DNA of 64,000 bases from Dipteris shenzhenensis (Eukaryota): the NCBI GenBank assembly GCA_047967505.1, contig CM106538.1, one strand, 5' to 3'. Below are positions 3,201 through 32,395 of the stretch, one piece after another (the stretch's first letter is position 1; each line of letters starts with the position of its first letter). Position numbers and translations under genes: made by a program. The notes under the pieces are model-generated. The model did no database searches, had not been told where the DNA came from, and saw nothing but the letters and a program-made list of their open reading frames with translations.

Positions 3201-3609
3201 CTCTCACTTCTCTATGTAGTCTACAAGTGGTAATTGCTTCTTGGTCAATAGTTGCTTGGCCTCTTGGGCAAGTAAGAAACAAAGTTGTGTTGTTGTTTCT
3301 ACCACAGAATCTGAGTATGTAGCGGCTTCTCTAGCAGCTCGAGAATTGGTTTAGCCACGATAATTGCTTGTAGATATTGGTCATCCTCCATCATCCAGCA
3401 CTCCTCTAAGATGTGATAATCAAAGTGCCATAAGTCTGGCTAAAGACTATGTTCAGCATAACAAATCCAAGCATATTGCTGCTCATTACCATTATGTCAG
3501 ACATGAAGTGAAGAAAGGGATGATAATGATTGAACATTGTCCCACTTCTCAGATGATTGCAGATATTCTCACCAAAGGACTTAGTGAGCCACGCTTCACA
3601 GTGCTATGA
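247..3609 (+). pseudogene. copia pol (PR-IN-RT-RH) with frameshifts, stops and a MITE insertion
   Basis: ORFs 360-1325, 2107-3219 and 3364-3609 carry successive pol motifs and are separated by stops and frameshifts. Confidence 0.92.
1465..1710. mobile_element. 246-bp MITE with 8-bp TSD
   Basis: Ends are CTCGGGGGGGTCACT and AGTGACCCCCCTGAG, an imperfect inverted repeat extending ~45 bp. TAAGAAGG is duplicated at 1457-1464 and 1711-1718. It interrupts the copia YDPSSKKVIINRD motif. Confidence 0.9.
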
Positions 3610-5725: not shown

Positions 5726-6653
5726 TAGGTATGTTATCTGACCAAGTACTTATCGAATGGGTGTGCGGCTTTGAGAACATTTCAATACCACCTAGGTTAA
5801 GGTGTAGGAAAAGTATTGTGCCCATGGGATATGCTTTGCATGGTCGATCGAGCATTAAATACCATTTTTGCCTTAGTGTCATGCACATCTGTAACAAAAC
5901 ACGCTACTAGGTGTGTTATCCGATCAAGTACTTATGTGATGGGAATGCCACTTTGCATGTAATTCAATTCCACCTAGTTTAAGGTGTGTGCAAAGTATTG
6001 TGCCCATCGGATATGCTTTGCATTATCGATCAAGCATAAAACACCGTTTTTGCCTTAGTGTAATGCACAACTATATAAAAACGCGGTCCTAGGTGTGTTA
6101 TTCAAACAAGTACTTATCAGATGGGGGCTCCACTTTGCATGCAAGTATCTTTCAACTAGTTTGAGGTGCATGAAAAGTATTGTGACCATTGGATATGCTT
6201 TGCATGGCTGATCACGCATTATACATCGTTTTTCCCCTAGTGATATGCACATCCGCAAAAAAACACGCCCTTAGGTGTGTTATCTGGCCAAGTATTTATC
6301 GGATGGGTGTGCCTCTTTAATAACATTTCAATACCACCTAGGTTGAGGTGTAGGAAAAGTGTTGTGCCCATCCGATATCCTTTGCATGGTCGATCCAGCA
6401 TGAAATACTATTTTTGCTCGTGTCGTGCACCATTCATAAAAAATCACGCTGCTAGGTATGTTATCCGATCAAGCACTTATGGGATGGGCGTGCCACTTTG
6501 CATGTAAGTCAATTCCACCTAGTTGAAGGTGTATGCAAAGTATTATGTCCATCGGATATGCTTTGCATTGTGGATCAAGCATAAAACACCATTTTTGCCT
6601 GTGTCATGCACAACCATATAAAAACATAGCCCTAGGTGTGTTATTCAAACAAG
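5726..6653. repeat. ~181-bp satellite, left part, with 3-monomer (~545 bp) higher-order periodicity
   Basis: TAGGT(G/A)TGTTAT starts at ~5727, 5908, 6090, 6272, 6453 and 6633. Variants TATCTG, TATCCG and TATTCA alternate. The array is cut mid-unit by the transposon. Confidence 0.93.
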
Positions 6654-11024: not shown

Positions 11025-11374
11025 GTTCTAGCACCACTATTTGTATGCAGATAGAGATGCTGAGAGCTTAGATGAGGGCACTGCAGGATGCTAGGGCACC
11101 CCCTGACTTGGTTGCGAGCCTGGATTCAGTTATTGAGGCTCTGAGTCGATTGGACACAGTTGAGGACGTTGTGGATAGCTTTCAGGCACAGGCCGAGGCG
11201 GAGATCACTGGTGGTGGCTTGGATTGGAGAGCCATTCGACAGTTGTTTGAGCGGGAGTCACATCACAGGGAGGCCTTGGACGACATGTTTTGGGATGGTC
11301 ACACCGAGGCGATGCGACCACGATCAGGGCTCCCCTTGCATATTTTATGGTGTAGGCACCCCATCATAGCAGCA
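11025..11374 (+). pseudogene. RING cargo gene of the outer copy, 5' part, interrupted by the nested insertion
   Basis: Near-identical to the reverse complement of 21838-21490. The frame ...HPIIAA resumes as HIYPRYL at 26450. Extra TAG at ~11068. Confidence 0.85.
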
Positions 11375-12643
11375 GGGTGGAAGCAAGCTAAGGGTGTCCA
11401 CTTTTTGTTCACTCCCCAATCCTAAGGAGGTGGAAAAACAAGCTTTTTAGCACACAAAAATGCAAATCTCATCTACTTCCCTATGGATCTAGTCTTTGAA
11501 GTCTTCTGACACAACATCACAGTTGCTATTGTGCACGCAATCGTATAGTCTGATCGAAAATTCGATGCACACACAAAAAATTTCTTTGTGTCACACGGCA
11601 TGGTTCCAGGGTGGTCACACGTTTGTCACGAACAAAGAGTGTCATATAAAATTCTAAATTTCTCACTCATTTTAGATTAAATGTTATTAAAACTTTGTAA
11701 GTGGTCTCTTTGCATTATGTAGAGCTTAACTTGATTTATTGGTAATTTTTTGAATGATTTATCTAATTATAAATAATTATTTATAATAAATAAAGTCATA
11801 AAATACATGCATTTTAGTAGCACACCACATTTTTTTAGTATTTTGAATAATTAAGCAAATCCAATTCGGTGGAAGGTTGGTAGGCACATAAGGGTGTGTG
11901 GTTGAATCATCAAATCCCAAATCCAACGGTTAGATTTAGGAAGATTGAAGTTTAATTTTTACTTTTACTCCTCAGAGGATCAACAAAGAATATTAAAAAT
12001 AAATCTAGTAATTCTCAAACATAACCAAACATTTCAAAAATGTCAATATTTTTAGTCCTCTGCATGATGAATAAGAGGAAAAAATTTTGGTTAAATTTGA
12101 GCAAGGGAAACGTACGATATGGCCTCCAAGAGTGAAATCTCTCTTTTGTGGGTGAAAAAGGGCCACCCAAGCCTAATACCAAGACAAGGTAGGCTTGGTA
12201 TTAGGCTTGGTGAGGTAGGCTAGGAGCATCACCGATCCTAGTGGCAAGCCTTTGGAGTCTGCATGCTGCCCATGTGGAAGGCTGAGTCATCAAAACCATG
12301 CCACGTTGTTAGACCACGTGGTGCCATCTCATCAAGCAGATGTGACATCACTCCTTGCCATGTCACCTTACATTGCCACACGTGCTGCCACATGTGCCAC
12401 CTCATCATTCCACATCATTTGCCATGTGATCACACAATGCCACCTTGGCATACCTCCTCTCCTGGCCACGTCACCAATCCCTCCACCTCAATTTGCCATG
12501 TCATCTACCACCTCATGAATGCCAACTCGTCATGCCCAGTACCACATCATGACCATGCAGGAAGAGACTATATCACCACATCATGACCATGCATGGTGCC
12601 ACATCAGCCAGATGCATACACATGACGATGTGCGATGCATACA

Positions 12644-12784
12644 ATACCTCGATCGAGGTACATATGATGGGTGAGGCATACATTACCTCGTTCGAGGTAT
12701 GTGACCGAGGAGACATACAGATACCTCGATCGAGGTTCATACATACATGCATGCGCAATGCACTAAATACCTCGATCGAGGTAT
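12644..12784. repeat. four ATACCTCGATCGAGGTA-type palindromes upstream of the transposase
   Basis: Copies at ~12644, 12684, 12721 and 12767; TATA-like CTATAAG at ~12919. Confidence 0.88.
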
Positions 12785-13013
12785 AAGCTCTGATCGCGGC
12801 TCTGGGCATAGCAGACCTCTCCACCAAAACTAAGCCAATTAGTATCAATCTTAGCACCTCTCCACCAATAATAATGAAGAGCAATCTAAGAGCAATCTAG
12901 TGGATGAGTTGAGGCTCTCTATAAGACACCACGTTTTGGTTCATTTCACCCATTCTTAGCCATTCTTGCCTCCTCATCACTTTGTCACACCTTCCATCCT
13001 ACTTTCATTGAGA

Positions 13014-15932
13014 ATGGGTTCTCAAAGCCGTAGAGCTAGTAGACGTGAAAGATGTAGGAACCCCCCCCAAATCTCATTGACGAGGAGTGCAAGCGGAAGG
13101 CTCGTGAGCGCAAGAGAGCCTCTAGAGCTCGAGCTCGCGCTGCCACCACTGATCCACCTCCAGCTCTACCTCTACATCCCACCTCCACCCCCACCCCCAC
13201 CTCCATTGTCCCCCCATGCTCATCCGCTCCCCTACCTCTAGCCTCCGCCCTTCCCCTAGCCACCTACATTTTGGCCTCCACGTCTACCTCTTCCCCCTCC
13301 ACCCTCCCCCCTCCCCCTCCCCCCACTCCGCTTGGCGCCTCCCTTCCCCCGTCCACCGTACCATCTCCCATTGATCCCGTTGCCCCACCTTGCAGCAGCA
13401 GTGTTGCTTCACGACGTGACTTGCCGAAGTCCACTATCCGTCGTCGTGCTAGCAAGATTGTGCAGTCTTTTTTTTGTGACCTCACGCCAGCTTCGCAGTC
13501 TTCTCTTCTTACGTCCCTGATTGATCACCCTGACTTGGTAGAGTGTAGGAGGCTTGCTGGTCTTGGTGCACGTAGAGATAGGGTTGTATCTAGCGAGGTC
13601 CTTAGCAGTGTTCGATGTTCCTATGCTTCTATTAAGCATAGGAACTCCAGTGATGCCTTGGCAGCACGTCGTGCTATTGTGGCTGCCATTAGTAGGCCTC
13701 ATATGATAGGCCATGTGCGTACCGCTTCACGTCTTCTTCAGATTGCACTGCGCACATTGCGAGTAGGCATCATTAGGAGGTAGAGTCTAGAGGATAGTGA
13801 GACTGATGCTCTTTGGGCTTCGAGTGGTCGTGCACCTCGCTGCGATCGATTGTTGGATGATTCCACTAGGTCCTTCATACAACAGTTTTGGGAGGAGCAT
13901 TGCAGAGCATCCCCGGTGTTCAAGAAGGCATTGCGGAAGAGGGTGTCACGCGGTGTGTACATTGAGCATGGTGCATGTTTTTTGGAGTGTACCCAGACTG
14001 AGTTGTACACTCAGTTTGTAGAGGCGCACCCGGAGTTCAAGATTGGGCAGAGGTCATTTGAGCGATGCAGGCCATGGTTTGTGCGATGCTCTCAGGAGCG
14101 TGACACATGCTGTTGTCGCTACCATGTGGATTTTGGATTGATGTATGACGTATTCCGTTCCCTTGATGGTCATAGGGGAGTGGTTCCTACTAGCCCTCGC
14201 GACTTCATTCATTCCATATTGTGTACTCGTACGAGATGGTGATGCTTTATTCCACTCCCTTGATTGTGTGGAAGGCACGTGTACTTTGTGTGGTGACTTT
14301 GCCAGAGTGCCACGAGTTGCACTAGATACTTGTGATGTGCAGATGGTTTGTTGGCAGCAGTATGAGTACTGTACCTTGACATTAGATGGTGGTGCACAGT
14401 CGAGGAGGTTGCAGCTTGTGGGGAAGGAGACACCACGTGTTGTATTCATTGACTGTTTTCGAGGGAAGCTGTACCGCTACATACGCCACTCGCACACTGC
14501 GAAATGGGAGGATCGTCAGTTTCGTGCATGTTTGAGGACATTTCCTATAGGGGTGGTTGTCTCAGTGGTGGACTTTGCGGAGAATTACACCTTTGCACCA
14601 CAGCATGAGATCCAATCGGAGTATTATTTCTCCGAACAGGTGACGTGTGATTGAGTGTTGATTTTTTCCCCGCCTCATTATATTGAATTATTTCAATAGT
14701 CATATTTTTTTTTCAATGCCATATTGCAGGTTGCTATATTTGTGCACATTAGCTATCGTCATGCACAGGCTCATGTGGATGGCATTGATAGCACCATGGA
14801 CTCACGCATCATTGTGCGAGAGTATCACTTCTACATTAGTGATGATCGATCGCATGATGCCCATTTTGTGCAGCATTGCTTCACTTTGCATGATAGTTTC
14901 TTGAGGGATCATGGTGTCACATGGCAGCGGTGCTGGATTTGGTCAGACGGTTGCGGCGGCGGTCAGTTCAAATCCGCTAGACAGTTTTATTGGTTCTGCA
15001 GATGGCACCATGAGACAGGCATTCCGATCACATGGAGCTACTTCGAGACAGGGCACGGTAAGGGAGAGCACGATGGTGCAGGTGCTTGCATGAAGCGTGC
15101 TTTGCGTCGATACCAGTTGCGTCACAGTGCCGATCGCTTCAAGGATGCACATGATGTGGTGTGGTGGTGCAGCCAGCACTTATCCACTAGTGCTACGTCC
15201 TCGTTTCAGTCACGTGACGATAGGGTGGTGAGCCGGTATTTTTGGTGCGTGGACATTGGGAGTCTTGATCGGTCGAGGCCTTTTGATTGTCGTTCTGTGC
15301 CTGGCACTCTTGATTTCCATTCCATCAGGAGTGTAGGTGAGTCTCACCCTGCGATCTTTTCTCGACGGTTTGCATGTTTTTGCTCTGCATGCATTGATGA
15401 TGATTGGGGAGGGTGCTCCATGATACCATGGGCCGATCCATGGGTACGGCGAGTGCTTTCTCCCTTCCAGCCTTGGGAGGAGATACATGATGATCAGGAT
15501 GCGGGATTCAGTTCCTCTAGAGATTATGACCAGCTTACAGATATTTTGCGTATTGGTGATATCTTCGCGGTTATTGCTTCGGAGGGCAATGAGGAGGGTG
15601 TGGATTATTACTTGTTGCGATGCTCTATGCTGAAGAGTGTGCTGAATGAGGATACAGTGGATGGGCATGGGATGCACTTCAATGCTCATAGCATGATCGT
15701 CGGTGGCCACTATTTTCAGCAGATACAGAGGCGTGGTCGCTATATTGAGTTCCAGGAGTACATGGCGGATCGGGAGGCATACATGTATTCTCATCTTGTT
15801 GTTGGGATCAAGATTACTTTGAGTCGTGTTCGCACTCGCAAGGCGACGTCCACTCCACGATGGCGCCTTGCAGTGGCGGATCACGAGAGCATACTTGCAA
15901 CTATTGGCATGAGAGCTGATCCTGAGGAGTAG
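13014..15932 (+). pseudogene. Sola2-type DDD transposase, two exons (intron 14640-14729), ~940 aa when repaired
   Basis: Motifs VDFAENY..QHEIQSEYY, WSDGCGG(G)QFKS and FETGHGKGEHDGAG; Cys clusters DTCCCRYH, CVEGTCTLCG and RRFACFCSAC. The GT-AG intron joins SEQ/VAIFVH. Lesions: frameshift ~13065, TAG ~13781, 4-bp insertion ~14226. Confidence 0.88.
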
Positions 15933-16264
15933 CACATTACATATCTTATTGTTTGGGATCATCAGTTGATCAGATTGATTTTTATTGGGTATCACTAGTT
16001 GATTACACTTTTTTGTATTCGATATGTATTGGCTCACTGTGTGACCATACCATTGTAATTTTCATGGACTCATATTTTGTATTTCACTATGATGGCTGTA
16101 TACACGTTCATACACATCATTGTATTAGATTCTATTTTTAACATGATGTCCGATGTCTTCTCAATGGGATTTGTTGTGTTTGTAATACAAAAAATTGTTT
16201 ATTAGTAGTAATGTTGTAATTTGTTTTGTGCATTAGGACATTTTAAAAACGTGACTAAGAAAAT

Positions 16265-18335
16265 AGCGCACGTACTAACGAAATACGCGTGTGGACTTGC
16301 TTATTGGGGATGAAACTTTGCACGACTCTTAGGCCACCCTAGCCAATAGTCCACGCGAGATTTGGTCTGAATTGATTTGGTGTGCGCCACGTGGAAGGTA
16401 CAATGCGTACATTTTTACAATCCCTACTAGCACTCGTGACTACGTATGAGCTATGGCGCATGTACTAACGAAATGCGCGTGTGGACTTATCTGTTGGGAA
16501 TGAAACTTCGCACAACTCTTAGGCCACCCTAGACATACATCCACGCAAGATTTGTTCTCCAACTTATTTGGTATGCGCCACGTGGAAGGTATAATGCGTA
16601 CATTTTTACAATCCCTACTAGCACGACTACGTGTGAGAAATGGTGCACGTACTAACCAAATATGCATGTGGACTTATCTGTTGGAGATTAAACTTTGCAC
16701 GGCTCTTAGGTTACCGTAGACGTACATCCACGCAAGATTTGGTGCCCAACTGATTTGGTATGCGCCACGTGGAAGGTACAATGCGTACATTTTTGCAATC
16801 CCTACTAGCACGACTACGTATGAGCTATGGCGCATGTAATGAGGAAATACGCGTGTGGACTTATCTGTTGGAAATGAAACTTCGCACGACTCTTAGGCTA
16901 CCGTAGGCGTACATCCACGCAAGATTTGGTGCCCAACTGATTTGGTATGCGCCACATGGAAGGACAGTTGCGTACATTTTTACAATCCCTACTAGCACTC
17001 GTGACTACGTATGAAAAATGGCGCACGTACTAATGAAATACACACGTGGACTTATCTGTTGGGGACGAAACTTCACACGCCTCTTAAGCTACCCTAGATG
17101 TACATCCACGCAAGATTTGGTCTCCAACTGATTTGGTATGCGCCACGTGGAAGGACAAATGCATACATTTTTACAATTTCTACTAGCACGACTAAACCCT
17201 AAACCCTAAACCCTGGACCCTAAATCCTAAACCCTGTTGGGCATGAAACTTCACACGCCTCTTAGGCTACCCTAGACGTACATCCACGCAAGATTTGGTC
17301 TCCAACTGATTTTGTTTGCGCCATGTAGAAGCAATCCCTACTAGCACGGCTAAACCCTAAACCCTAAACCCTAAACCCTGGACCCTAAATCCTAAACCCT
17401 GTTGGGGACGAAACTTCACATGCCTCTTAGGCTACCCTAGACGTACATCGACGCAAGATTTTGTCTCCAACTGATTTGGTTTGCGCCACGTAGAAGCAAT
17501 CCCTACTAGCACGGCTAAACCCTAAACCCTAAACCCTAAACCCTGGACCCTAAATCCTAAACCCTGTTGGGGACGAAAATTCACACGCCTCTTAGGCTAC
17601 CCTAGACGTACATCCACGCAAGATTTGGTCTCCAACTGATTTAGTTTGCGCCACGTAGAAGCAATCCCTACTAGCACGGCTAAACCCTAAACCCTAAACC
17701 CTAAACCCTGGACCCTAAATCCTAAACCCTGTTGGGGACAAAACTTCACACGCCTCTTAGGCTACCCTAGACGTACGTACATCCACGCAAGATTTGGTCT
17801 CCAACTGATTTTGTTTGCGCCATGTAGAAGCAATCCCTACTAGCACGGCTAAGCCCTAAACCCTAAACCCTAAACCCTGGACCCTAAATCCTAAACCCTG
17901 TTGGGGACGAAACTTCACACGCCTCTTAGGCTACCCTAGACGTACATTCACGCAAGATTTGGTCTCCAACTGATTTAGTTTGCGCCACGTAGAAGCAATC
18001 CCTACTAGCACGGCTAAACCCTAAACCCTAAACCCTGGACCCTAAATCCTAAACCCTGTTGGGGACGAAACTTGACACGCCTCTTAGGCTACCCTAGACG
18101 TACATCCACGCAAGATTTGGTCTCCAACTGATTTGGTTTGCGCCACGTAGAAGCAATCCCTACTAGCACGGCTAAACCCCAAACCCTAAACCCTAAACCC
18201 TGGACCCTAAATCCTAAACCCTGTTGGGGACGAAACTTCACACGCCTCTTAGCTACCCTAGACGTACATCGACGCAAGATTTGGTCTCCAACTGATTTGG
18301 TTTGCGCGACGTAGAAGCAATCCCTACTAGCATGA
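16265..18335. repeat. internal tandem array: ~187-191 bp units grading into ~158-169 bp units with (CCCTAAA)n
   Basis: The anchor CTAGCAC recurs at 16427, 16618, 16805, 16992, 17183, 17341, 17506, 17671, 17840, 18005 and 18163. Seven telomere-like blocks lie in 17192-18221. Confidence 0.93.
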
Positions 18336-19866
18336 CTACACGTTAGCGTACCACCAAAGTCAAAAGAAAATAGTAAAATTAAATTGTGGCCTAACATGTC
18401 ACACCTTCCTTGTACTCCCATACATGAGTGGAGTTTAAAAGGGAGAAGTGGGATTGTTAATATGTGTATATTTTTTTGGTGCATAGCCTGTGCAACAACC
18501 CTTTCTTTTTACATAAACCAAATACCAACACTTTTCCTTATACCAATCGCCAATCCTTTCTCTTGTACATAAACCACTAAATGCAAAAGAAAATAGTGAA
18601 ATAAAATGGTGGGCTAGCATGCTACACCTTCCTTGTATTCCCGTATACATGCATTAATTGCCAATTGTGTTGATTTCTCTTCTTTATGTTCATTATCTTT
18701 TATACATGCATAATAATTAGATTGGTGCATTGGCAAATGTCATATTAAGGAAATTGAAATAGTCCTTAGAAACTTGGAAGGCATATGCGATTGTGATTTG
18801 GAAGGCACATGTGATTGTGGTTCGAATATGACAAATAATTAGGTCTTGTTTTCTTTGATCACCAATTAGCACAAGTATTGTTAACAATAACAGACAAATT
18901 AAACACTGAGTCATAATAAATAACAGCAAAATCATGCAGAGGACAAGTCTAACTCCATTTTTGAAAAAAATCCCCTAAAAATTTATATTTTTTAAAAATT
19001 GTAGGGACAAAATATACGCTTCATGTCAATAATATTAAAAAACTAGAATTGTGAAAAAAGAATGCATAAAATATTACTTATATTTTATTGCAGAACCTAA
19101 AAATGTCTAGTATTACCATTTGCAAAAAGTATTCTCTCCTTTAATTTAAAAAACATGACAAATTGCAAAGGAGAAGAAACTGCTTCATTCAACTAAGAGA
19201 GTTGCTAGAGCTTTTTCTTTGAAATACCAATTGTTTTCTATGCAAGTGCCCATATCAAATTGAAAGTTGGTAAAATTGATGTTACTTTAATATCTAATTT
19301 CATTTGATGAAACAATTTTACATTGGGCTATGGCATTGTCTAAAAAAAGTAATTTTCTTTTTATACAAATTAGTTTATCAAATGGTTGAATTTCAACATA
19401 TTTTGATATTAAGATCGGAAGGCTAGATTTGGAAGCATGAATATGACAATAGTTGTCTTTTTGAAAAATTGATGAAAATTTGGATTTTGAAACACACTTT
19501 ATTGACAAACATGAATAGAATAAAATTTTTGTTTAAAAAATGAAAAACTTTTATCCGCAAAATAAAATTTTCATCCAAAATAAGATGAATTTTGATATGT
19601 TTAATGTTTAATGTTTGCAATTAATGTTTAATGTTTACAATTACTTCACATGGCATTCTTTTTTAAATACCTTATGTATTAAACAAACTATAAACTGAGA
19701 TAAACTGAGATAAACAAAGTGTGAAGAACATCATGAAAGTACGAAAATGCTCATACATCATAAAAGTGGGAACAATATCATGAAAGTACCAAAATGAATC
19801 TGTACATCATCATCATCATGCTGCAAAAGTGCATCCCTATACAAGAAACGTGTGAAGCCTAAACAA

Positions 19867-21838
19867 TCAATCTGAATCTGAATCTGATAACTCTACATAT
19901 GATCCTCTAGTGGAACGCTGACGTGGCTCCTGTATGACTCGCTGCCCAACCGTCCGCTGTGTGCCCTCAGGCAATGCCGGCTCAGATGGGCTAGCCTCAT
20001 CACCTGCATGAGATGGGCCAGCCTCATCCTGATGAGGAGGAGGGCATGCTGCACGCGCCACTGCTGCCATCTCTGCATCCCTCGCCTCCTCTATGTACGC
20101 GCGTCTCAGCTCCCATAGCCGTGCATCTGCGAATACTCGTGCCTCAAATCCAGCGCGAGTAATCGTCTCTACATGTGAAATACGCTGGTCTCGGCCCCGC
20201 CCTAGCTGCTGCTCCACCCACTGCTGCAATGATGTCTGCAGCTCTGCCTCTCGCTCAATCCGGCGTGCCTCCTCCGCTCGTGCCTCGTCACCTGGCATGA
20301 AGTCACCGTACGAAAAGCGGCATGGAACGCATGATGCAACCACTGATGTATCCGCACACTCCTGCATCAGCAATGCTCTCTGTGCCTCCTCCCTGTAGTG
20401 CTCTGTCAGGACTACACGGGCGAATGGATCAACAGCCTGACGATGACCAGGATATAGATCATCCATGCCCAGTCCTCTGTATGTCGCCACATCAATGTCG
20501 GCAAAGCATACCGGGCACATTGAACGTGCCACCATGTGGCGGGTCATGCAGTGGAGATGTGCGATGTGGCCGCACCCTAGACCAAACCACCCTACGGTGT
20601 CAAATTCCTCGTGGCAGAGGACACAAGTGGAGGTAGGAAGCCTCGCTACGACTGCTGCGTCTATCGGTGTCCTAGTCGGCACATCTACAGGAGGAGCAGG
20701 GTATAGGGCCACACTGGGGTCGATCCTATGGCGCGACGGATCATGACTGATATGCCTCAACTGCAAGATATAGTGCTCTGCGCGATGGTATGCTATGCGT
20801 GTCCGAATCCTCTGCTCCTCCAAATCTGTCTGCAAGAGTCGTACGCGAGACTCCATCTCCTGACGCAAGAGTCGTACGCGAGACTCCATCTCCTGACGCA
20901 ATAGATGTGCCTGCAATGCAAACATGTCGCGTACATGGTGAGAATTAACCAAAAAACTTCAGTTCAAAACACGCTACAAAAAAATAAACTAACATAATCA
21001 AAATAACTAACCTCGTCCCTAGACTCGGCCAACACAGCCTCCAACTCTGCAATCCGTCTGTCTCGAGCCTCCAACTCGTGCTGAGGCGCCGTAGATGTGG
21101 GAGGTGGTGTAGATGTGGGACGCTCCATCGATGATCGAGGTGGGGGAGGTGGAATCGCAATAGATCTCGATAGGGCCGAGACCATGTGCTGCAAGGATGA
21201 TGCCACTGAATGAACATCTCCCCTAATCTGTCCTCCCACCGCTCACAATGCCGGTGCAGGGATGGTGTGCAACTCTGGTCCCTCGCGTCGATGCCGAACA
21301 CCTACAATCTGCCGCTCCTGGCGCCCCATCCTACCACGTCCCGCTCCTGATCCTGGACGGGTACTGAGGTAGTCCACCCGATGACCAAGGACAAACTCAG
21401 CATAAAGCTGCATGGCAAACGACCTCGCTATCTGGCGGTTGTGAGGCAACCGACCACCATTCGCAGCAAGATATCTCGGATAAATGTGTGCTGCTATGAT
21501 GGGGTGCCTACACCGTAAAATATGCAAGGGGAGCCCTGATCGTGGTCGCTGGCCCTCGGTGTGACCATCCCAAAACATGTCGTCCAAGGCCTCCCTGTGA
21601 TGTGACTCCCGCTCAAACAACTGTCGAATCGCTCTCCAATCCAAGCCACCACCAGTGATCTCCGCCTCGGCCTGTGCCTGAAAGCTATCCACAACATCCT
21701 CAACTGTCTCCAATCGACTCAGAGCCTCAATAACTGAATCCAGGCTCGCAACCAAGTGAGGGGGTGCCCTAGCATCCTGCAGTGCCCTCATCTCAGCTCT
21801 CAGCATCTCTATCTGCATACGAATAGTGGTGCTAGAAC
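19867..21838 (-). pseudogene. transposon cargo gene encoding a coiled-coil plus RING-H2 protein (intron 20911-21011)
   Basis: CVLC-x13-CGHIAHLHC-x10-CPVC matches C3H2C3. The GT-AG intron joins ESRDE/AHLLRQ in frame. One premature TGA at ~21243, where the other copy reads CAA. The protein ends YVELSDSDSD; upstream exon(s) uncertain. Confidence 0.85.
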
Positions 21839-23999
21839 CTGTGCGCTGGCTGGCGCATGCACAAAAAAAACACATGGAAATTAATATTCTATTTGGGTAA
21901 TGAAAATAATATTCTATTCAATATGACTTATAATCTATTTACGCAATGAAAACTATTTGTACGTACTCCTTGATGAGGTAGATCCTATGCACCTACCGAC
22001 CGGTAGATGGGCCAAATGTGTGGCTCAATATTAATCAATATTATTAATAATTCTTAATTTTGATTAGAATTTTTTCACTCTAGTCGTTGCATTTTAAAAC
22101 TTAGATGTCTCAAGTATTTTCTCCTTATATGTTTCCCTTTTTTCACTTTTTATCCAATATGAAACTTTTCCACATGTGGTGTAAGAACCACATTGTCCAC
22201 TAATGGCCCCTATACTAAGGACAGATAGTGGAGAGGTTTGGTTAATAAGACCTTCTTTGAATGCTTTACTGCCTTGGGTTTGCAATAGATATGGAGGAGA
22301 TAGAAGGATACCTAATACATTACTTTGAACGATACACAAGCAAGGCGCATCTAGTATTTCTCGGACTACACATTAAAAATGAGAGCGGGTTCACACTACA
22401 GACCTTTTAAAGCGAGAACTTTGAGAAAATAATTAAGCCTTCTCAATATTATCTATTTTGGTTGGGCAATCCACCTCAACTACTGGCCATTCCTATAGAT
22501 CATCACTTGGTTCAAGACATTTTGTATAAGACTCACTCGACTTCTAGTTGTAAAAATAGTTTTGGAATGAGATCATCCACATACGTAGCAACAACAAAGG
22601 GCACAAGATCCCTAGAAGAGGATTCAAAAACTTTGAAAATTAAATCCTTGGATGTCCCTATGCAATGGGAAGGGTTGCATACGATAACTAATGTTAATTT
22701 TGGTTGAGCTCAAGTAATAAAGCGTCACCGTTGCCTATGGTTGGACTAGCAAGAAAGAGACCACCCTTGCTTACAATGAAACTAGCATATAATTCCTTGA
22801 GCATGTGGTTGACATTCCATGTGTGACATAGTTTCAACGAGGGAAAGGAGATATGTAGCATCCGCACTATTTTGGTTATGAGGTGGTTCACGTGATTATT
22901 GATACAAAGTCTTTTTGGGAAAACATCTTAGTCGTTTGTAAAAGACAAGATAAATGTTGTTAACATTAGTCATAGGTTTCCCTACGGTGCAAAAAGGGAT
23001 GTATGTGTGCCACATGGCGAGCTGCCATGTAGCAAACAACATGGAATGGGATGCTTCAAATGTCGACTCTTGAAGGTTATGGAGTTCTCTCTCTCTTAAG
23101 TCTCTTATCTATGATCATTAAGGGATGATTAGGAGAGATTCAGTCATTAACAGGCTCTATTTGAACTTAGGTCTATAGTTGATCAAAACACTTGCATATA
23201 TTAGCATGAATGTGGAATGAATATAGATCCACTAGAGTCCCATGTGCAATGAATGTTAGGTATTCTAGTTAAACTTTCAGTTTCTCTATGGCGTATTTCT
23301 TTCTTCTTATACATATAAGAGAAGTAGATGAATTATGGAACTAGACAACAAACATGATCAAAGTGCTAGATCTAAAGCATGCCATAGTGATAGCATAAGA
23401 ATCTCAAACAGTTTATAGGCACAGACTGTAATATTCGAGTTCTTGAAGACCCATCCAAATATTCTCAATCTTGTAATATTCTTTTTTCAGTTATGCTAGA
23501 GTCTATGCATAACTTAGAAGAATTAGACATTTGCAACTCCATGTCTTCTTAAGGTCTAAGCCACTATTTCATGTCTTCTTAAGGGATATTGAAGATTTGG
23601 ACTAAGCCACTATCTAGGCATTTCCAAGCTATAGCCTTATCATGCATGCTTAGTCTAATCAATCTATTGACTAATAGGGGACATATGCCTTCAACTTATT
23701 TCCTAGTAGAATCGATCCTTACTAATTGCCAAATAGTTAAAGGATGATTTATCATTAGTAATTTCCCAATATATTAGGGATGATTACCCAAGCTTAAACC
23801 TAGTTTCCTTCTAAAGAACTTGCTTGTCCCAAAGTGTCTAGTCAACTTCAAGCTTTGGTCACCAACCATGTCACTAGTCAATCTTTAATGTCCAACTCCA
23901 ATAGTTGACTAGTAGGTTTATGTTTGTGTATTAATTCGATAAGTCGAGCGAGTCTTATACAAAATGTCTTATTAATTTGATAAGTCGAGCGAGTCTTGT

Positions 24000-25540
24000 G
24001 CCTCATTAAACGTTTTTTAAATTTAAAATTTTCACATTTTAAATTTTAAATGTCGTAATTCAAAAAAAAAAATTAATTTACAAATGCATTTCAAATTTAT
24101 AAATACTTAAAAATTATTCCTATGAACGTTTTTTATTTAATAGAAAGAGCTCTATTTAACAAAAAAAAATCTCATTTCACATTTTAAATAAAAAATGTCG
24201 TAATTTACAAATTTTAAAAAAACATTAAAATGCATTATAAATTTTGAAATTTTTTATAATTTTCCTTATAAACTAAAATTTAATTAAATTCTACCAAAAA
24301 GAAAATGCTACATTAAAAAAATAGAAATATAGAACTCCTAATTCAAAAATTTTAAAAAAATTTACAAATGCATTTCAAAATTATAATATTTTATAATTAT
24401 TAATATGAACGTTCTTTTAAAATACAATTTCATATAAAAAAGCTCTATTTTGAAAATACAATTTCATTTTCACATTTTAAATAAAAAATGTCATAATTCA
24501 TAAATTTCAAAAAAACATTATATTGCATTTCAAATTTAGAAAATTTTTATTATTTCTCTTTTAACCTAAAATTTTTTATTATTTCTCTTTTAAATTCTAC
24601 CTCATAAAAAAAATAGAAATATTTAACATTTTCACATTTTTAATAAAAAAAGCCTCATTAAACGATTTTTAAATTTAAAAATTTCACATTTTAAATTATA
24701 AATGTCGTAATTTAAAAATTAAAAAATAAAATTTACAAATGCATTTGAAATTTATAAATATTTTATAATTATTAATATGAACTTTTTTTATTTACTAAAA
24801 AAGGCTCTATTTAAAAAAAATAATTAATTTTCACATTTTAAATAAAAAATCTCGTAATTTATAAATTTAAGAAAAACTAAATTTATAATGCATTTTATAA
24901 TTTTTCTTATAAACTAAAATTTTAAATTACGTTTTTTAAAATTAAAATTTTCACATTTTAAATTATAAATGTCGTAAAAAAAAAATTTTACAACTACATT
25001 TTAAATTTATAAATATTTTATAATTAATTGCAATCAACGTTTTTTTATTTACTAAAAAAAGCTCTATTTAAAAAAAAAATAATTAATTTTCACATTTTAA
25101 ATAAAAAATCTCGTAATTTATAAATTTAAGAAAAACTAAATTTATAATGCATTTTATAATTTTTCTTATAAACTAAAATTTTAAATTACGTTTTTTAAAA
25201 TTAAAATTTTCACATTTTAAATTATAAATGTCGTTATTTAAAAAATAAAAAAAAAAATTCAACTACATTTCAAATTTATAAATATTTTATAATTAATAAT
25301 ATCAACGTTTTTTTATTTACTAAAAAAAGCTCTATTTAAAAAAAAAATTTAATTTTCACATTTTAAATAAAAAATCCCGTAATTCATAAATTTGAGAAAA
25401 ACATTAAAATTTCAGAAAAACATTAAAATGCATTTTATAATTTTTCTTTTAAACTAAAATTAAATCAAATTCTACATAAAAGAAAATGCTACATAAAAGA
25501 AAATGCTACATAAAAGAAAATGCTACACAAAAGAAAATGC
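24000..25540. repeat. AT-rich degenerate repeat (inverted counterpart of 7560-8852)
   Basis: Reverse-complement similarity to 7560-8852 with unit gains and losses. Confidence 0.8.
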
Positions 25541-25660
25541 CAACCTGGACTCTCCCCCTCCTGCTCCGTCCATCTCCGTCGAAGTCCGTTCGTCGCTCTC
25601 CGTCGCTCGCGCTCTTCCGTCGAAGTCCGGCAAATCCGAAATCGGTGAATGAGGCAGAGC

Positions 25661-26348
25661 TCGATCGAGGTATGCGGAATGAGGGGGGTCGCTCTCCTTT
25701 TATAATAAAAATTAGGGTTTACCTACCTCGATCGAGGTATTCTTTCCATGCGCATACATCACGGTACATATACCTCGATCGAGGTATTGGCATGCCACGA
25801 TACCTCGATCGAGGTATTCTTGACATAACCATGCATCTCGTTCGCATGCCACAATACCTCGATCGAGGTATTCTTTCCATGCGCATACATCCCGGCACAT
25901 ATACCTCGATCGAGGTATGGCCATGCCACGATACCTCGATCGAGGTATTGTGACATGCCCATACATCTCGGTACATCCACGTCGATGGAGGTTTTGACAT
26001 GCCACGATACCTCGATCGTGGTGTGTTGGCGGAAACGGGATGCCAAGTCATGTGTCCACGATACCTCGATCGAGGTATGTCATCCGCCCTGTTGGCTGCC
26101 CTTTCGGATGGCACATACCTCGATCGAGGTATGCTGGACATGCCACGTGACCTCGATCGAGGTTGAGCTGGATGGCCACAATACCTCGACGAGGTAGATG
26201 TGGCATGTGTAGCTGGCCTGCCAACAAACCTCGATCGAGGTACATGCTCGGTTCGGCAAAAAAGCTACGTACCTCGATCGAGGTATGGGCTAGGCTCGGT
26301 TGTGCTCGTGTGTGGTTTTCATTGGACCTTATACCTCGATCGAGGTAT
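25661..26348. repeat. subterminal palindrome array of the inner copy
   Basis: About 15 ATACCTCGATCGAGGTAT-type copies, mirroring 6751-7440. Confidence 0.92.
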
Positions 26349-26449
26349 AGGAGACCGAAGCAAAACCTTTGTATTTTCACTCGAGCGGGTGTCACACTCA
26401 CCCGAAAGTGGTCCGGAAGTGGACACCCTTAGCTTGCTACCTCCCAGCA

Positions 26450-28038
26450 CACATTTATCCGAGATATCTTGCTGCGAATGGTGGTCGATTGCCTCACAAC
26501 CGCCAGATAGCCAGGTCGTTTGCCATGCAGCTTTATGCTGAGTTTGTCCTTGGTCATCGGGTGGACTACCTCAGTACCCGTCCAGGATCAGGAGCGGGAC
26601 GTGGTAGGATGGGGCGTCAGGAGCGTCAGATTGTAGGTGTTCGGCGTCGACACGAGGGACCAGAGTTGCACACCATCCCTGCACCGGCATTGCAAGCGGT
26701 GGGAGGACAGATTAGGGGGGATGTTCATTCAGTGGCATCATCCTTACAGCACATGGTCTCTGCCCTATCGAGATCTATTGCGATTCCACCTCCCCCACCT
26801 CGATCATCGATGGAGCATCCCACATCTACACCACCTCCCACATCTACGGCACCTCAACACGAGTTGGAGGCTCGAGACAGACGGATTGCAGAGTTGGAGG
26901 CTGTGTTGGCCGAGTCTAGGGACGAGGTTAGTTATTTTGATTATGTTAGTTTATTTTTTTGTAGCATGTTTTGAACTGAAGTTTTTTGGTTAATTCTCAC
27001 CATGTACGCGACATGTTTGCATTGCAGGCACATCTATTGCGTCAGGAGATGGAGTCTCGCGTACGACTGTTGCAGACAGATTTGGAGGAGCAGAGGATTC
27101 GGACACGCATAGCATACCATCGCGCAGAGCACTATATTTTGCAGTTGAGGCATATTAGTCGTGATCCGTCGCGCCATAGGATCGACCCCAGTGTGGCCCT
27201 ATACCCTGCTCCTCCCGTAGATGTGCCGACTAGGACACCCATAGACGCAGCAGTCGTAGCGAGGCTTCCTACTGCCACTTGTGTCCTCTGCCACGAGGAC
27301 TTTGACACCGTAGGGTGGTTTGGACTAGGGTGCGGCCACATCGTACATCTCCACTGCATGACCCGCCACATGGTGGCACGTTCAGTGTGCCCTGTATGCT
27401 TTGCCGACATTGATGTGGCGACATACAGAGGACTGGGCATGGATGATCTATATCCTGGTCATCATCAGGCTGTTGATCCATTCGCCCGTGTAGTCTTGAC
27501 AGAGCACTACAGGGAGGAGGCACAGAGAGCATTGCTGATGCAGGAGGGTGCGGATACATCGGTGGTTGCATCATGCATTCCACGACGCTTTTCGTACGGT
27601 GATTTCATGCCAGGTGCCGAGGCACGAGCGGAGGAGGCACGCCGGATTGAGCGAGAGGCAGAGCTACGGACATCATTGCAGCAGTGAGTGGAGCAGCAGC
27701 TAGGGCGGGGCCGAGACCAGCGTCTTTCACATGTAGAGACGATTACTTGCGCTGGATTTGAGGCACGAGTATTCGCAGATGCATGGCTATGGGAGCTAAG
27801 ACGCGCGTACATAGAGGAGGCGAGGGAGGCAGAGATGGCAGCAGTGGCGCATGCAGCATGCCCTCCTCTTCATCAGGATGAGGCTGGCCCATCTCATGCA
27901 GGTGATGAGGCTAGCCCATCTGAGTCGGCATTGCCTGAGGGCACACAGCGGACGGTTGGGCAGCGAGTCATACAGGAGCCACGTCAGCGTTCCACTAGAG
28001 GATCATATGTAGAGTTATCAGATTCAGATTCAGATTGA
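26450..28038 (+). pseudogene. RING cargo gene of the outer copy, 3' part (intron 26927-27027)
   Basis: CVLCHEDF...CGHIVHLHC...CPVC; premature TGA at 27685-27687 (TGG in the other copy). Confidence 0.86.
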
Positions 28039-29794
28039 TTGTTTAGGCTTCACACGTTTCTTGTATAGGGATGCACTTTTGCAGCATGATGATGATGATG
28101 TACAGATTCATTTTGGTACTTTCATGATATTGTTCCCACTTTTATGATGTATGAGCATTTTCGTACTTTCATGATGTTCTTCACACTTTGTTTATCTCAG
28201 TTTATAGTTTGTTTAATACATAAGGTATTTAAAAAAGAATGCCATGTGAAGTAATTGTAAACATTAAACATTAATTGCAAACATTAAACATTAAACATAT
28301 CAAAATTCATCTTTTTTTGGATGAAAATTTTATTTTGCTGATAAAAGTTTTTCATTTTTTAAACAAAAATTTTATTCTATTCATGTTTGTCAATAAAGTG
28401 TGTTTCAAAATCCAAATTTTCATCAAATTTTCAAAAAGACAACTATTATCATATTCATGCTTCCAAATCTAGCCTTCCGATCTTAATATCAAAATATGTT
28501 GAAATTCAACCATTTGATAAACCAATTTGTATAAAAAGAAAATTACTTTTTTTAGACAATGCCATAGCCCAATGTAACATTGTTTCATCAAATGAAATTA
28601 GATATTAAAGTAACATCAATTTTACCAACTTTCAATTTATGCTATTTACAAAAAGTATTCTAGAAATGTATATTGGTACAAAACTTATCCATGACTCCGA
28701 GGGCAATGTTGTTACCTATGTGTAAATCAATTGATAAAAAATTCTTTCAACACCAATGAACTTGAGGGAATGTGTGATCTAGAGATACTTAAACAACATG
28801 ACAAAAGGAAAAAATTCGAGAAATCACCAATGTGTGGACATGCTTAGTTTGTAGGGTGTAGAAATTCTTTTATATGGATTTGATATGGGCACTTGCATAG
28901 AAAACGATTGGTATTTCAAAGAAAAAGCTCTAGCAACTCTCTTAGTTGAATGAAGCAGTTTCTTCTCCTTTGCAATTTGTCATGTTTTTTAAATTAAAGG
29001 AGAGAATACTTTTTGCAAATGATAATACTAGACATTTTTAGGTTCTGCAATAAAATATAAGTAATATTTTATGCATTCTTTTTTCACAATTCTAGTTTTT
29101 TAATATTATTGACATGAAGCGTATATTTTGTCCCTACAATTTTTAAAAAATATAAATTTTTTGGGGATTTTTTTCAAAAATGGATTAGACTTGTCCTTTG
29201 CATGATTTTGCTGTTATTTATTATGACTCAGTGTTTAATTTGTCTCTTATTGTTAACAATACTTGTGCTAATTGGTGATCAAAGAAAACAAGACCTAATT
29301 ATTTATCATATTCGAACCACAATCACATGTGCCTTCCAAATCACAATCGTATATGCCTTCCAAGTTTCTAAGGACTATTTCAATTTCCTTAATATGACAT
29401 TTGCCAATGCACCAATCTAATTATTATGCATGTATAAAAGATAATGAACATAAAGAAGAGAAATCAACACAATTGGCAATTAATGCATGTATACGAGAAT
29501 ACAAGGAAGGTGTGGCATGCTAGCACACCATTTTATTTCACTATTTTCTTTTGCATTTAGTGGTTTATGTACAAGAGAAAGGATTGGCGGTTGGTATAAG
29601 GAAAAGTGTTGGTATTTGGTTTATGTAAAAAGAAAGGGTTGTTGTGGCTATGCACCAAAAAAATATACACATATTAACAATCCCACTTCTCCCTTTTAAA
29701 CTCTACTCATGTATGGGAGTACAAGGAAGGTGTGACATGTTAGGCCACAATTAATTTTACTATTTTCTTTTGACTTTGGTGGTACGCTAACGTG

Positions 29795-32060
29795 TAGTCG
29801 TGCTAGTAGGGATTGCTTCTACGTGGCGCAAACCAAATCAGTTGGAGACCAAATCTTGCGTGGATGTACGTCTAGGATAGCCTAAGAAGCATGTGAAGTT
29901 TCGTCCCCAACAGGGTTTAGGATTTAGGGTCCAGGGTTTAGGGTTTAGGGTTTAGGGTTTAGCCGTGCTAGTAGGGATTGCTTCTACGTGGCGCAAACCA
30001 AATCAGTTGGAGACCAAATCTTGTGTGGATGTACATCTAGGGTAGCCTAAGAGGTGTGTGAAGTTTCGTCCCCAACAGGGTTTAGGATTTAGGGTCCAGG
30101 GTTTAGGGTTTAGGGTTTAGGGTTTAGCCGTGCTAGTAGGGATTGCTTCTACGTGGCGCAAACCAAATCAGTTGGAGACCAAATCTTGCGTGGATGTACG
30201 TCTAGGGTAGCCTAAGAGGCATGTGAAGTTTCGTCTCCAACAGGGTTTAGGATTTAGGATCCAGGGTTTAGGGTTTAGGGTTTAGGGTTTAGCCGTGCTA
30301 GTAGGGATTGCTTCTACGTGGCGCAAACCAAATCAGTTGGAGACCAAATCTTGCGTGGATGTACGTCAAGGGTAGCCTAAGAGGCGTGTGAAGTTTTGTC
30401 CCCAACAGGGTTTAGGATTTAGGGTCCAAGGTTTAGGGTTTAGGGTTTAGGGTTTAGCCGTGCTAGTAGGGATTGCTTCTACGTGGCGCAAACCAAATCA
30501 ATTGGAGACCAAATCTTGCATGGATGTACGTCTAGGGTAGCCTAAGAGGCGTGTGAAGTTTCGTCCCCAACAAGGTTTAGGATTTAGGGTCCAGGGTTTA
30601 GGGTTTAGGGTTTAGGGTTTAGCCATGCTAGTAGGGGTTGCTTCTACGTGGCGCAAACAAAATCAGTTGGAGACCAAATCTTGCGTGGATGTACGTCTAG
30701 GGTAGCCTAAGAGGTGTGTGAAGTTTCGTCCCCAACAGGGTTTAGGATTTAGGGTCCAGGGTTTAGGGTTTAGGGTTTAGTCGTGCTAGTAGAAATTGTA
30801 AAAATGTATGCATTTGTCCTTCCACGTGGCGCATACCAAATCAGTTGGAGACCAAATCTTGCGTGGATGTATGTCTAGGGTAGCCTAAGAGGCGTGTGAA
30901 GTTTCGTGCCCAACAGGGTTTAGGATTTAGGGTCCAAGGTTTAGGGTTTAGGGTTTAGTCGTGCTAGTAGAAATTGTAAAAATGTATGCATTTGTCCTTC
31001 CACGTGGCGCATACCAAATCAGTTGGAGACCAAATCTTGCGTGGATGTATGTCTAGGGTAGCCTAAGAGGCGTGTGAAGTTTTGTGCCCAACAGGGTTTA
31101 GGATTTAGGGTCCAGGGTTTAGGGTTTAGGGTTTAGTCGTGCTAGTAGAAATTGTAAAAATGTATGCATTTGTCCTTCCACGTGGCGCATACCAAATCAG
31201 TTGGAGACCAAATCTTGCGTGGATGTACATCTAGGGTAGCCTAAGAGGCGTGTGAAGTTTCGTCCCCAACAGATAAGTCCACGTGCATATTTCATTAGTA
31301 CGTGCGCCATTTTTCATACGTAGTCACGAGTGCTAGTAGGGATTGTAAAAATGTGCGCAACTGTCCTTCCATGTGGCGCATACCAAATCAGTTGGGCACC
31401 AAATCTTGCGTGGATGTACGTCTACGGTAGCCTAAGAGTCATGCGAAGTTTCATTTCCAACAGATAAGTCCACACGCGTATTTCATTAGTACATGCGTCA
31501 TAGCTCATACGTAGTCGTGCTAGTAGGGATTGTAAAAATGTACGCATTGTACCTTCCACGTGGCGCATAACAAATCAGTTGGGCACCAAATCTTGCGTGG
31601 ATGTACGTCTACGGTAACCTAAGAGCCGTGCAAAGTTTAATCTCCAACAGATAAGTCCACATGCATATTTGGTTAGTACGTGCGCCATTTCTCACACGTA
31701 GTCGTGCTAGTAGGGATTGTAAAAATGTACGCATTATACCTTCCAGTGGCGCATACCAAATAAGTTGGAGACCAAATCTTGCGTGGATGTATGTCCAGGG
31801 TGGCCTAAGAGTCGTGCGAAGTTTCATTCCCAACAGATAAGTCCACACGCGCATTTCGTTAGTACATGCGCCATAGCTCATACGTAGTCACAAGTGCTAG
31901 TAGGGATTGTAAAAATGTACGCATTGTACCTTCCACGTGGCGCACACCAAATCAATTCAGACCAAACCTTGCATGGATGTATGTCTAGGGTGGCCTAAGA
32001 GTCGTGCGAAGTTTCATCCCCAACAAGCAAGTCCACACGCGTATTTCGTTAGTACGTGCG
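29795..32060. repeat. internal tandem array with (TTTAGGG)n blocks, outer copy
   Basis: Eight GGGTTTAGGATTTAGGGTCCAGGGTTTAGGGTTTAGGG-type blocks at ~29912-31137, followed by the longer non-telomeric units. Confidence 0.93.
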
Positions 32061-32395
32061 CGAATTTTCTTAGTCACGTTTTTAAAATGTCCTAATGCAC
32101 AAAACAAATTACAACATTACTACTAATAAACAATTTTTTGTATTACAAACACAACAAATCCCATTGAGAAGACATCGGACATCATGTTAGAAATAGAATC
32201 TAATACAATGATGTGTATGAACGTGTATACAGCCATCATAGTGAAATACAAAATATGAGTCCATGAAAATTACAATGGTACGGTCACACAGTGAGCCTAT
32301 ACATATCGAATACAAAAAAGTGTAATCAACTAGTGATACCCAATAAAAATCAATCTGATCAACTGATGATCCCAAAAAATATGATATGTAATGTG

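Follow-up and report, generated by a model that had tools for sequence, protein, structure and literature searches.

Background

Sola, a superfamily of cut-and-paste DNA transposons which was reportedly first described in 2009, appears to include the closest described relatives of the elements analyzed here. These elements lie in a 64,000-nucleotide stretch of Dipteris shenzhenensis DNA (contig CM106538.1), referred to below as the window, to whose full length all window coordinates refer. The window contains two members of a single family of cut-and-paste DNA transposons, each ~15 kb long, element 1 (E1) being nested in element 2 (E2), and each copy carries a transposase gene together with a second, convergent gene (gene 2). 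The reading proposed in the present work, which we hold to be quite probable, is that the two copies represent one large (~15 kb) Sola-type family, most likely Sola2, with an accessory RING-H2 gene.

An excerpt of PMC10741241 describes Sola elements as encoding a transposase with a triad of three aspartates (DDD), as generating 4-bp target-site duplications (TSDs) and as present in the moss Physcomitrella, and gives their size as mostly 2-9 kb, with some over 15 kb. Among conifers, a repeat table for Cryptomeria lists DNA/Sola-2 at 56.7 Mb (PMC11539532, excerpt), and an excerpt of a preprint on Cupressus names Sola2 as the most abundant DNA-transposon superfamily. Elements with two genes, termed Sola2-Fanzor, are reported from Dictyostelium fasciculatum and Polysphondylium pallidum (PMC3627910, excerpt). 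According to an excerpt of PMC5751038, the RNase H-like domains of Sola, and also those of Academ, have no Pfam similarity, and the Ginger transposase contains the Pfam rve integrase core; a paper on the RNase H superfamily places Sola only within a broad clade.

Two nested copies and their target sites

E1 occupies positions 11375-26445 (15,071 bp), with its transposase gene on the plus strand, and is bounded by a 29-bp terminal inverted repeat (TIR) with two mismatches, which pairs 11375-11403 with 26417-26445, starts with GGG and ends with CCC; the two arms compare as GGGTGGAAGC... and GGGAGGTAGC.... E2 spans 30,312 bp including E1, and its own sequence amounts to 15,237 bp. The features that define the two insertions are given here, with a strand wherever one applies.

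11375-11403, plus strand: TIR of E1, transposase side, GGGTGGAAGCAAGCTAAGGGTGTCCACTT
26417-26445, minus strand: TIR of E1, gene-2 side, the inverted-repeat match
11371-11374: left TSD of E1, AGCA, compared with the empty site inside E1
26446-26449: right TSD of E1, AGCA, compared with the empty site inside E1
6654-36965, minus strand: E2, same family as E1, in the opposite orientation and enclosing E1
6650-6653 and 36966-36969: TSD of E2, CAAG, compared with satellite monomers
21489-21493, minus strand: empty site for E1, which is E1's own counterpart of its insertion point in E2
5726-6644 (left, ~5 copies) and 37019-40310 (right, ~18 copies): 182-bp satellite around E2, interrupted by it

A BLASTN comparison of E1 with the window showed that E2 is full-length and that the two elements are collinear over their whole length, with 93-98% identity. 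A 19-nt core of the TIR occurs four times in the window against an expectation of 0.01, the sites being both ends of E1 and both ends of E2, and GGG...CCC is present at all four of these ends. Outside the window, the same core gave two exact matches in prokaryote genome contigs, both in contigs of metagenome-assembled genomes with flanks unlike the TIR, where ~4 matches would be expected by chance in 596 Gb, and no match in viral contigs.

Each insertion can be compared with a paralogous copy of its target that was never interrupted. At 21489-21493 the copy of gene 2 carried by E1 itself reads ...catagcAGCAcacattt... without interruption and contains one AGCA, and six monomers of the 182-bp satellite match the reconstructed 26-nt empty site of E2 with at most three mismatches and a single CAAG, where none would be expected by chance. 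Because these uninterrupted sites carry a single AGCA and a single CAAG, the 4-bp duplication is proven for both insertions. The order of events would then be that E2 entered the 182-bp satellite and that E1 later entered, in the opposite orientation, exon 1 of the gene 2 of E2. A preliminary description of this DNA had noted 29-bp TIRs starting with GGG and 4-bp TSDs on two independent insertions, and both observations are borne out, the former by the pairing of the E1 ends and the abundance of the core, and the latter by the empty paralogous sites.

The transposase gene and its lesions

The transposase gene of E1 consists of two exons, and its parts, together with the position of the E2 copy, are as follows.

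13014-14639, plus strand: transposase exon 1, with ATG at 13014 and the first Asp motif, DFAENY, at 14571-14588
14640-14729, plus strand: predicted transposase intron of 90 nt, GT..AG, read from the sequence
14730-15932, plus strand: transposase exon 2, with the second and third Asp, an H/C cluster and a C-terminal barrel
14946-14948, plus strand: codon of the second Asp, in WSDGC; the motif WSDGC..QFK starts at 14940
15051-15077, plus strand: motif GHGKGEHDG of the third Asp, in exon 2, with the Asp codon at 15072-15074
~15318-15392, plus strand: H/C zinc-type cluster, in exon 2
15513-15890, plus strand: BAH-like beta-barrel at the transposase C-terminus, from a predicted structure (model residues 73-198)
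~35319-32396, minus strand: transposase of E2, aligned with the E1 copy

With 14640-14729 removed, SEQ is followed directly by VAIFVHISYRH, and the spliced product runs collinearly with homologues that lack the intron; a codon walk along the E1/E2 alignment gives a transposase of 947 codons when the lesions are bridged. Three such lesions occur in E1: a poly-C run at 13060 is one C short, positions 13781-13783 form a stop codon, and four extra bases are inserted at 14227-14230. This copy also has an additional in-frame Gly within the SDGC..QFK motif. The E2 copy has four, consisting of stops at codons 546, 613 and 877 and a 1-bp deletion near 32647, and it carries a Glu to Lys replacement at the invariant Glu of DFAENY. 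Over ~3.1 kb of the transposase region the two copies differ by 51 substitutions, and the coding differences comprise 17 synonymous and 25 non-synonymous codons.

Both transposase copies are pseudogenes, with independent stops and frameshifts. Since both are broken, neither copy is able to move alone, and recent movement needed the transposase of another copy. Contigs from public sequencing runs, among them those of run X1, carry unbroken letters at all three E1 lesion sites (in X1 the letter at 13781 is intact and the 4-bp insertion at 14227 is absent, and the extra C at 13060 is found in three runs), so less damaged copies exist elsewhere. The contigs of one run that is possibly RNA end at 14606 and restart at 14761, flanking the predicted intron, and no junction was seen in them. 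That both copies are broken was not stressed in the preliminary description.

The transposase family and its predicted fold

Relatives compared with the window transposase include P0001 (942 aa), which is 53% identical to it, and P0002, a protein of the moss Ceratodon, which is 32% identical. Among 31 aligned homologues, three aspartates are invariant in all 31, namely D476, D597 and D638 in the numbering of P0001, which correspond to the motifs DFAENY, WSDG and HGKG.HDG, and the same holds for E479 (DFAENY), D562 (ISDD), QFK and KG. The family is a very large one: a profile built from the 31 homologues finds 15,235 cluster representatives at E <= 1e-3, and 1,691 remain at E <= 1e-30.

Searches against Pfam at E <= 1 to 10 found no family on four transposase pieces from the window, on P0001 or on P0002, and none of 48 long relatives (0/48) has a Pfam family over the catalytic domain. 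A search of the PDB by sequence gave nothing significant (best E 0.43), and a Foldseek search with the model of the catalytic core gave no match at E <= 1e-3. In an AlphaFold model of the homologue P0027 (predicted local distance difference test score, pLDDT, 83.5), the core is RNase H-like; the first Asp lies on strand 1, the second where strand 4 ends and the third where the next helix begins. The best structural match of this core is 7jn3_A, a retroviral integrase core (Z 10.0, root-mean-square deviation (rmsd) 3.3, 155 residues aligned), and TnsB, IstA, Mos1 and Hermes follow after the integrase cores. The predicted structure thus gives the transposase an RNase H core of the integrase type, and the three invariant Asp of the alignment (D-D-D) are presumably the catalytic residues.

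Other searches with the transposase yielded leads at most. A feature search of the Atlas returned unnamed echinoderm and mollusc clusters and one DUF7869 cluster, and the transposase itself does not match DUF7869; a word-index protein search with the transposase alignment returned nine proteins; and none of the matches listed by a full-text literature search for the motif strings was relevant. Individual relatives carry further domains or features of their own: two of the 48 long relatives (P0136, P0179) have a C-terminal OTU cysteine-protease domain, one (P0151) has SH3_Tf2-1 and a chromodomain, and in a related metagenome locus, L050, the SDGCAG..QFK motif within 1698-2705 is split by a short in-frame AT-rich stretch resembling an intron, where the window gene has no intron.

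When the last 211 residues of the window exon 2 were folded with 40 homologues, the resulting model (pLDDT 86.5) contained a beta-barrel whose best structural match is the BAH1 domain of DNMT1 (Z 6.7, 89 residues aligned, rmsd 3.3), with every Z below 8. ORC1, EBS and PBRM1 are among the BAH matches that follow, and ten of the top 15 structural matches are entries with BAH in their titles. For this C-terminal model Foldseek found no match at E <= 1e-3, and Pfam BAH did not match. The model thus offers modest support for a BAH-like C-terminus, which is to be taken as a lead.

The convergent RING-H2 gene

Gene 2 is read from the minus strand of E1. Its parts, and the opposite-strand open reading frames (ORFs) of another clade with which it is compared below, are listed here.

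21875-21012, minus strand: gene 2 exon 1, from the first ATG
21011-20911, minus strand: predicted gene 2 intron of 101 nt, GTTAGT...GCAG, read from the sequence
20910-19867, minus strand: gene 2 exon 2, with coiled coil, RING-H2 and acidic tail
L033:7029-8732, L045:3686-5302, L074:4388-5398 and L032:6857-7903, all minus strand: acidic coiled-coil ORFs of the other clade, related by mutual homology

The product of ~635 codons contains coiled-coil segments, a RING-H2 of the C3H2C3 type (20625-20506) and an acidic tail. The zinc ligands read in the ORF are C-x2-C-x13-C-x-H-x2-H-x2-C-x10-C-x2-C, which is the C3H2C3 pattern. Pfam zf-RING_2 matches gene 2 at E 2.2e-5 with 25.1 bits, just below its 27.3-bit cut-off. 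The picture is the same for L050. The Atlas feature search returned, as leads only, generic RING clusters with scores under 0.9. Both copies of the gene are interrupted: that of E1 has an in-frame stop at 21245-21243 where E2 has Gln, and that of E2 is cut in two by the E1 insertion and, in addition, stops prematurely at 27685-27687.

A homologue of gene 2 is found in L050, whose transposase is 39% identical to P0001 in the best segment. Directly downstream of that transposase lies a 420-aa open-ended ORF which has two collinear blocks in common with gene 2, the RING region at 49% identity over 51 aa (E 2e-16) and an N-terminal block at 32% over 72 aa (E 2e-4). A screen for second ORFs of at least 180 aa away from the transposase match was made in 27 of 80 related metagenome loci, these being the longer ones, and nine of the 27 had such ORFs. 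In four loci (L032, L033, L045 and L074) the ORFs lie downstream of the transposase on the opposite strand and are mutually homologous (L033 and L045, for example, are 64% identical over 357 aa). The ORF of L050 and those of these four loci indicate that a second downstream gene recurs in the transposase family, with an identity that differs between clades. From these sequence comparisons we take gene 2 to be an accessory gene of this lineage rather than a chance capture.

Internal repeats and candidate binding sites

Several repeat classes lie between the genes and near the ends of the elements; the tandem arrays were delimited with Tandem Repeats Finder (TRF).

12647-12781: four copies of the CCTCGATCGAGG palindrome, ~1.3 kb inside the transposase-side end of E1
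25659-26345: 14 copies of the CCTCGATCGAGG palindrome, 100-790 bp inside the gene-2-side end of E1
16261-18332: tandem arrays of 187 bp x 5 and then 165 bp x 6.9 (TRF), between the two genes
24662-25402: AT-rich 259-bp tandem array (TRF), near the gene-2-side end of E1

The 12-bp palindrome CCTCGATCGAGG, with at most one mismatch, has 35 matches in the window against 0.01 expected, all of them inside E1 or E2. Its distribution in E2 is much like that in E1, with 13 copies within 100-790 bp of the gene-2-side end and four at ~1.3 kb inside the transposase-side end. Clustered in this way, the palindromes are candidate transposase-binding sites. E2 also has arrays matching the 187- and 165-bp arrays, at 29794-32069. 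Each 165-bp unit (17192-18332 in E1 and 29795-31136 in E2) contains ~7 copies of CTAAACC, the plant-type telomere repeat, and the elements thus contain interstitial telomere-like tracts which have been spread by the transposon.

With respect to internal organization, the preliminary description had claimed a spliced transposase of ~940 aa with the motifs DFAENY, SDG..QFK and HGK..HDG, a second convergent gene and several internal arrays. The arrays are confirmed by TRF, the convergent gene is found as the two minus-strand exons 21875-21012 and 20910-19867, and the splicing and repair of the transposase that had been proposed as a check, once carried out with the three E1 lesions bridged, gives the 947 codons reported above, with one 90-nt intron and all of the motifs located.

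A mechanism consistent with these features may be proposed. The ~947-aa transposase would recognise the 29-bp GGG...CCC ends, and probably also the clustered subterminal CCTCGATCGAGG palindromes; its integrase-like RNase H core would cut the DNA using the three aspartates; and the ends would be joined to target DNA whose two strands are cut 4 bp apart, so that 4-bp duplications would result.

Assignment to a superfamily and alternative explanations

Several superfamilies were considered and rejected. CACTA/CMC elements (EnSpm, Chapaev) have CACTA-type termini and a TSD of 2-3 bp, or 4 bp for Chapaev; the present family has no Pfam family of the Transposase_21 type, and its ends are GGG and not CAC. 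KDZ/Zisupton elements have an 8-bp TSD and a KDZ transposase domain, where the present family has a TSD of 4 bp and no Pfam match. The Ginger superfamily, which is suggested by the integrase-like fold, was rejected because no rve match was found on the window pieces, P0001 or P0002, and piggyBac and Kolobok, which duplicate TTAA, were rejected on account of the TSDs AGCA and CAAG. Among families outside Pfam, only Sola and Academ are known to suit a 4-bp TSD that is not TTAA. Academ transposases have a DDE triad, with Glu as the third residue, and a TSD of 3-4 bp. By description, then, the 4-bp TSD of the present family is compatible with Academ, and its third residue, Asp in 31/31, argues against it; Sola is favoured over Academ because this third Asp is invariant.

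The family is therefore very probably Sola: both insertions have 4-bp TSDs (AGCA and CAAG), and a DDD triad with 31/31 Asp is combined with a predicted RNase H-like core (P0027 model, Z 10.0). As to the branch within Sola, we infer, slightly less firmly, that it is likely to be Sola2, the GGG...CCC found at the four ends being in agreement with the Sola2 termini 5'-GRG...CYC-3'. A number of points weigh against this reading as a whole. The Sola2 call is based on TSD length, ends, DDD triad, elimination and literature. A search for TIR pairs and TSDs in those of the 80 related metagenome loci that are at least 5 kb long found only chance-like 12-mers, so that the 4-bp rule is shown for two insertions only. 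The public sequencing runs searched included no listed RNA run, and neither gene model has RNA support. The gene 2 homologue adjoins the transposase in only one of the 80 loci (L050), where it lies on the same strand and is not convergent, and the convergent ORF of the other clade neither resembles gene 2 detectably nor contains a notable Pfam family. In addition, the TSDs of dictyostelid Sola2 elements are AT-rich (AWWT; PMC3627910, excerpt), and AGCA and CAAG are not.

It is improbable, in our estimation, that the family belongs instead to another or unnamed superfamily with a 4-bp TSD, of which an Academ-like one is the main named candidate, and that its likeness to Sola2 is limited to TSD length and ends. 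Such a placement would accord with the reliance of the Sola2 call on features, elimination and literature, with the lack of Pfam similarity which Academ shares with Sola (PMC5751038, excerpt), with the outcome of the Atlas search, whose clusters were either unnamed ones from echinoderms and molluscs or the one carrying DUF7869, a domain that the protein itself does not match, and with the best structural matches of the transposase, which are generic integrase and transposase cores; it is countered by the invariant third Asp, which is the residue described for Sola (PMC10741241, excerpt) and not the Glu of Academ, by the occurrence of homologues of the transposase in moss, where Sola is reported (same excerpt), by conifer repeat annotations from curated libraries, which in the excerpts cited label abundant plant elements Sola-2, and by the agreement of the ends with the Sola2 rule. 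A different doubt concerns gene 2, which could be a captured fragment of a host gene or a passenger without a role, the two-gene layout then being incidental cargo. We regard this as rather unlikely, because the two conserved blocks are collinear and adjoin distantly related transposases (identity is 39% between that of L050 and P0001, and 53% between P0001 and that of the window), so that independent capture is hard to invoke, and the recurrence of an opposite-strand downstream ORF in the clade of L032, L033, L045 and L074 points the same way; the suggestion nevertheless gains from the breakage of gene 2 in both E1 and E2, from the confinement of its conservation with L050 to the RING and one short block in a different orientation, from the absence of a homologue in 79 of the 80 related loci (most of which are short contigs), and from the failure of both Pfam and Atlas to recognise the protein beyond sub-threshold RING matches. 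Finally, the length of 15 kb might be that of a composite, in which a much shorter true unit has been inflated by nested unrelated repeats such as the arrays and the gene-2 segment. The usual Sola size of 2-9 kb (PMC10741241, excerpt), the 165- and 187-bp arrays, which with their telomere-like runs take up ~2 kb between the genes, and the AT-rich 259-bp array near one end would all suit a composite, but the internal blocks showed no TIR or TSD pairs of their own, and the whole internal order, arrays included, is common to E1 and E2 from end to end, from which it follows that any acquired parts were already in the unit that transposed at least twice. This explanation is accordingly very improbable, and a ~15-kb Sola-type unit with an accessory gene is the reading retained below.

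Surroundings of the elements

The window is a transposon-rich region. Ty1/copia-type coding regions, with Retrotran_gag_2, rve, RVT_2 and SH3_retrovirus, a 26-bp tandem repeat and low-complexity arrays flank the nested elements.

354-3219, plus strand: Ty1/copia-type coding region
44753-49297, plus strand: Ty1/copia-type coding region
58084-60846, minus strand: Ty1/copia-type coding region
41574-42134, 49739-50441 and 51317-52823: low-complexity G-/purine-rich arrays with GGGA and GGGAGGGAG units and long AG microsatellites
43818-44050: 26-bp tandem repeat (TGCCACGTCATCAC...), ~9 copies, between a G-rich array and a copia element

The strong GC skew of the three low-complexity intervals is due to their G-/purine-rich arrays.

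Significance and comparison with known systems

The preliminary description had called these elements Sola2-like, and this part of it stands by virtue of the 4-bp TSD, the GGG...CCC ends, the DDD RNase H-like core and the absence of a Pfam family. Its further claims, that they form a large, cargo-bearing plant lineage which may be undescribed and that Sola2 elements are known mainly from animals and protists as smaller, single-gene elements, are overstated, as Sola is reported in moss, Sola-2 is abundant in conifers, some Sola elements exceed 15 kb and two-gene Sola2-Fanzor elements exist (PMC10741241, PMC11539532, PMC3627910 and the Cupressus preprint, all as excerpts). Given these published moss, conifer, >15-kb and two-gene reports, E1 and E2 belong to a known kind of transposon. 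New details may lie in the RING-finger gene that accompanies the transposase and in the BAH-like C-terminus, and we know of no description of either a RING-H2 partner or a BAH-like domain for Sola elements.

As it stands, the result is a good annotation rather than a surprise. The Sola superfamily is listed in conifer and moss repeat tables and its structure is barely described, and the self-nested pair provides a clean, internally controlled proof of plant Sola-type ends and of the 4-bp duplication. The gene models, presumed catalytic residues, palindromes and accessory gene could serve as the starting point for a curated plant Sola2 entry and for a profile of a transposase family which has no Pfam model though it has more than 15,000 cluster representatives. 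A further conception, which we consider decidedly doubtful, is that of a green-lineage Sola2 branch whose transposase would have acquired the BAH-like reader, which would steer integration by histone marks, and would be accompanied by a conserved, E3-ligase-like RING-H2 partner, which would act on host proteins by ubiquitination; if it were true, a variable second downstream ORF would be a general trait of a very large, Pfam-less transposase family. If both turn out to have a function, the BAH-like domain and the RING partner would suggest a DNA transposon that is guided to its targets by chromatin and manipulates its host.

Analogies can be drawn with several better-known systems. En/Spm (CACTA), PIF/Harbinger and MuDR resemble the present family in combining a transposase with a second element protein, but their TSDs are 3 bp for CACTA and PIF and 9 bp for MuDR, as against 4 bp here, and their transposases are recognised by Pfam families, none of which is matched by the present one. 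Repeated subterminal motifs are common to E1/E2, En/Spm and Ac, and in En/Spm and Ac these motifs bind element proteins. Chromoviruses have a chromodomain attached to the C-terminus of the integrase, and if the predicted barrel is correct, what the two would share is a beta-barrel of the chromatin-reader type that ends an integrase or transposase of the RNase H fold, with a chromo fold in the one case and a BAH-like fold class, in another kind of element, in the other.

The closest correspondence is with Sola and Sola2, which have in common with E1/E2 the 4-bp TSDs, the DDD triad, TIR ends, a Pfam-less core, occurrence in non-flowering plants and a size that in some cases is above 15 kb; the RING-H2 partner gene, the BAH-like C-terminus, the satellite arrays and the subterminal palindromes go beyond Sola2 as it is known to us. 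The Sola2-Fanzor elements encode a Sola2-type transposase that is close in size, at 888 aa, to that of E1/E2, and they likewise have short TIRs, TSDs of 4 bp and a second protein-coding gene, but their second gene encodes a TnpB-like Fanzor1 nuclease where that of E1/E2 encodes a RING-finger protein, and their TIRs are 12-21 bp long and their TSDs AWWT, as compared with TIRs of 29 bp and the TSDs AGCA and CAAG in the Dipteris elements (PMC3627910, excerpt).

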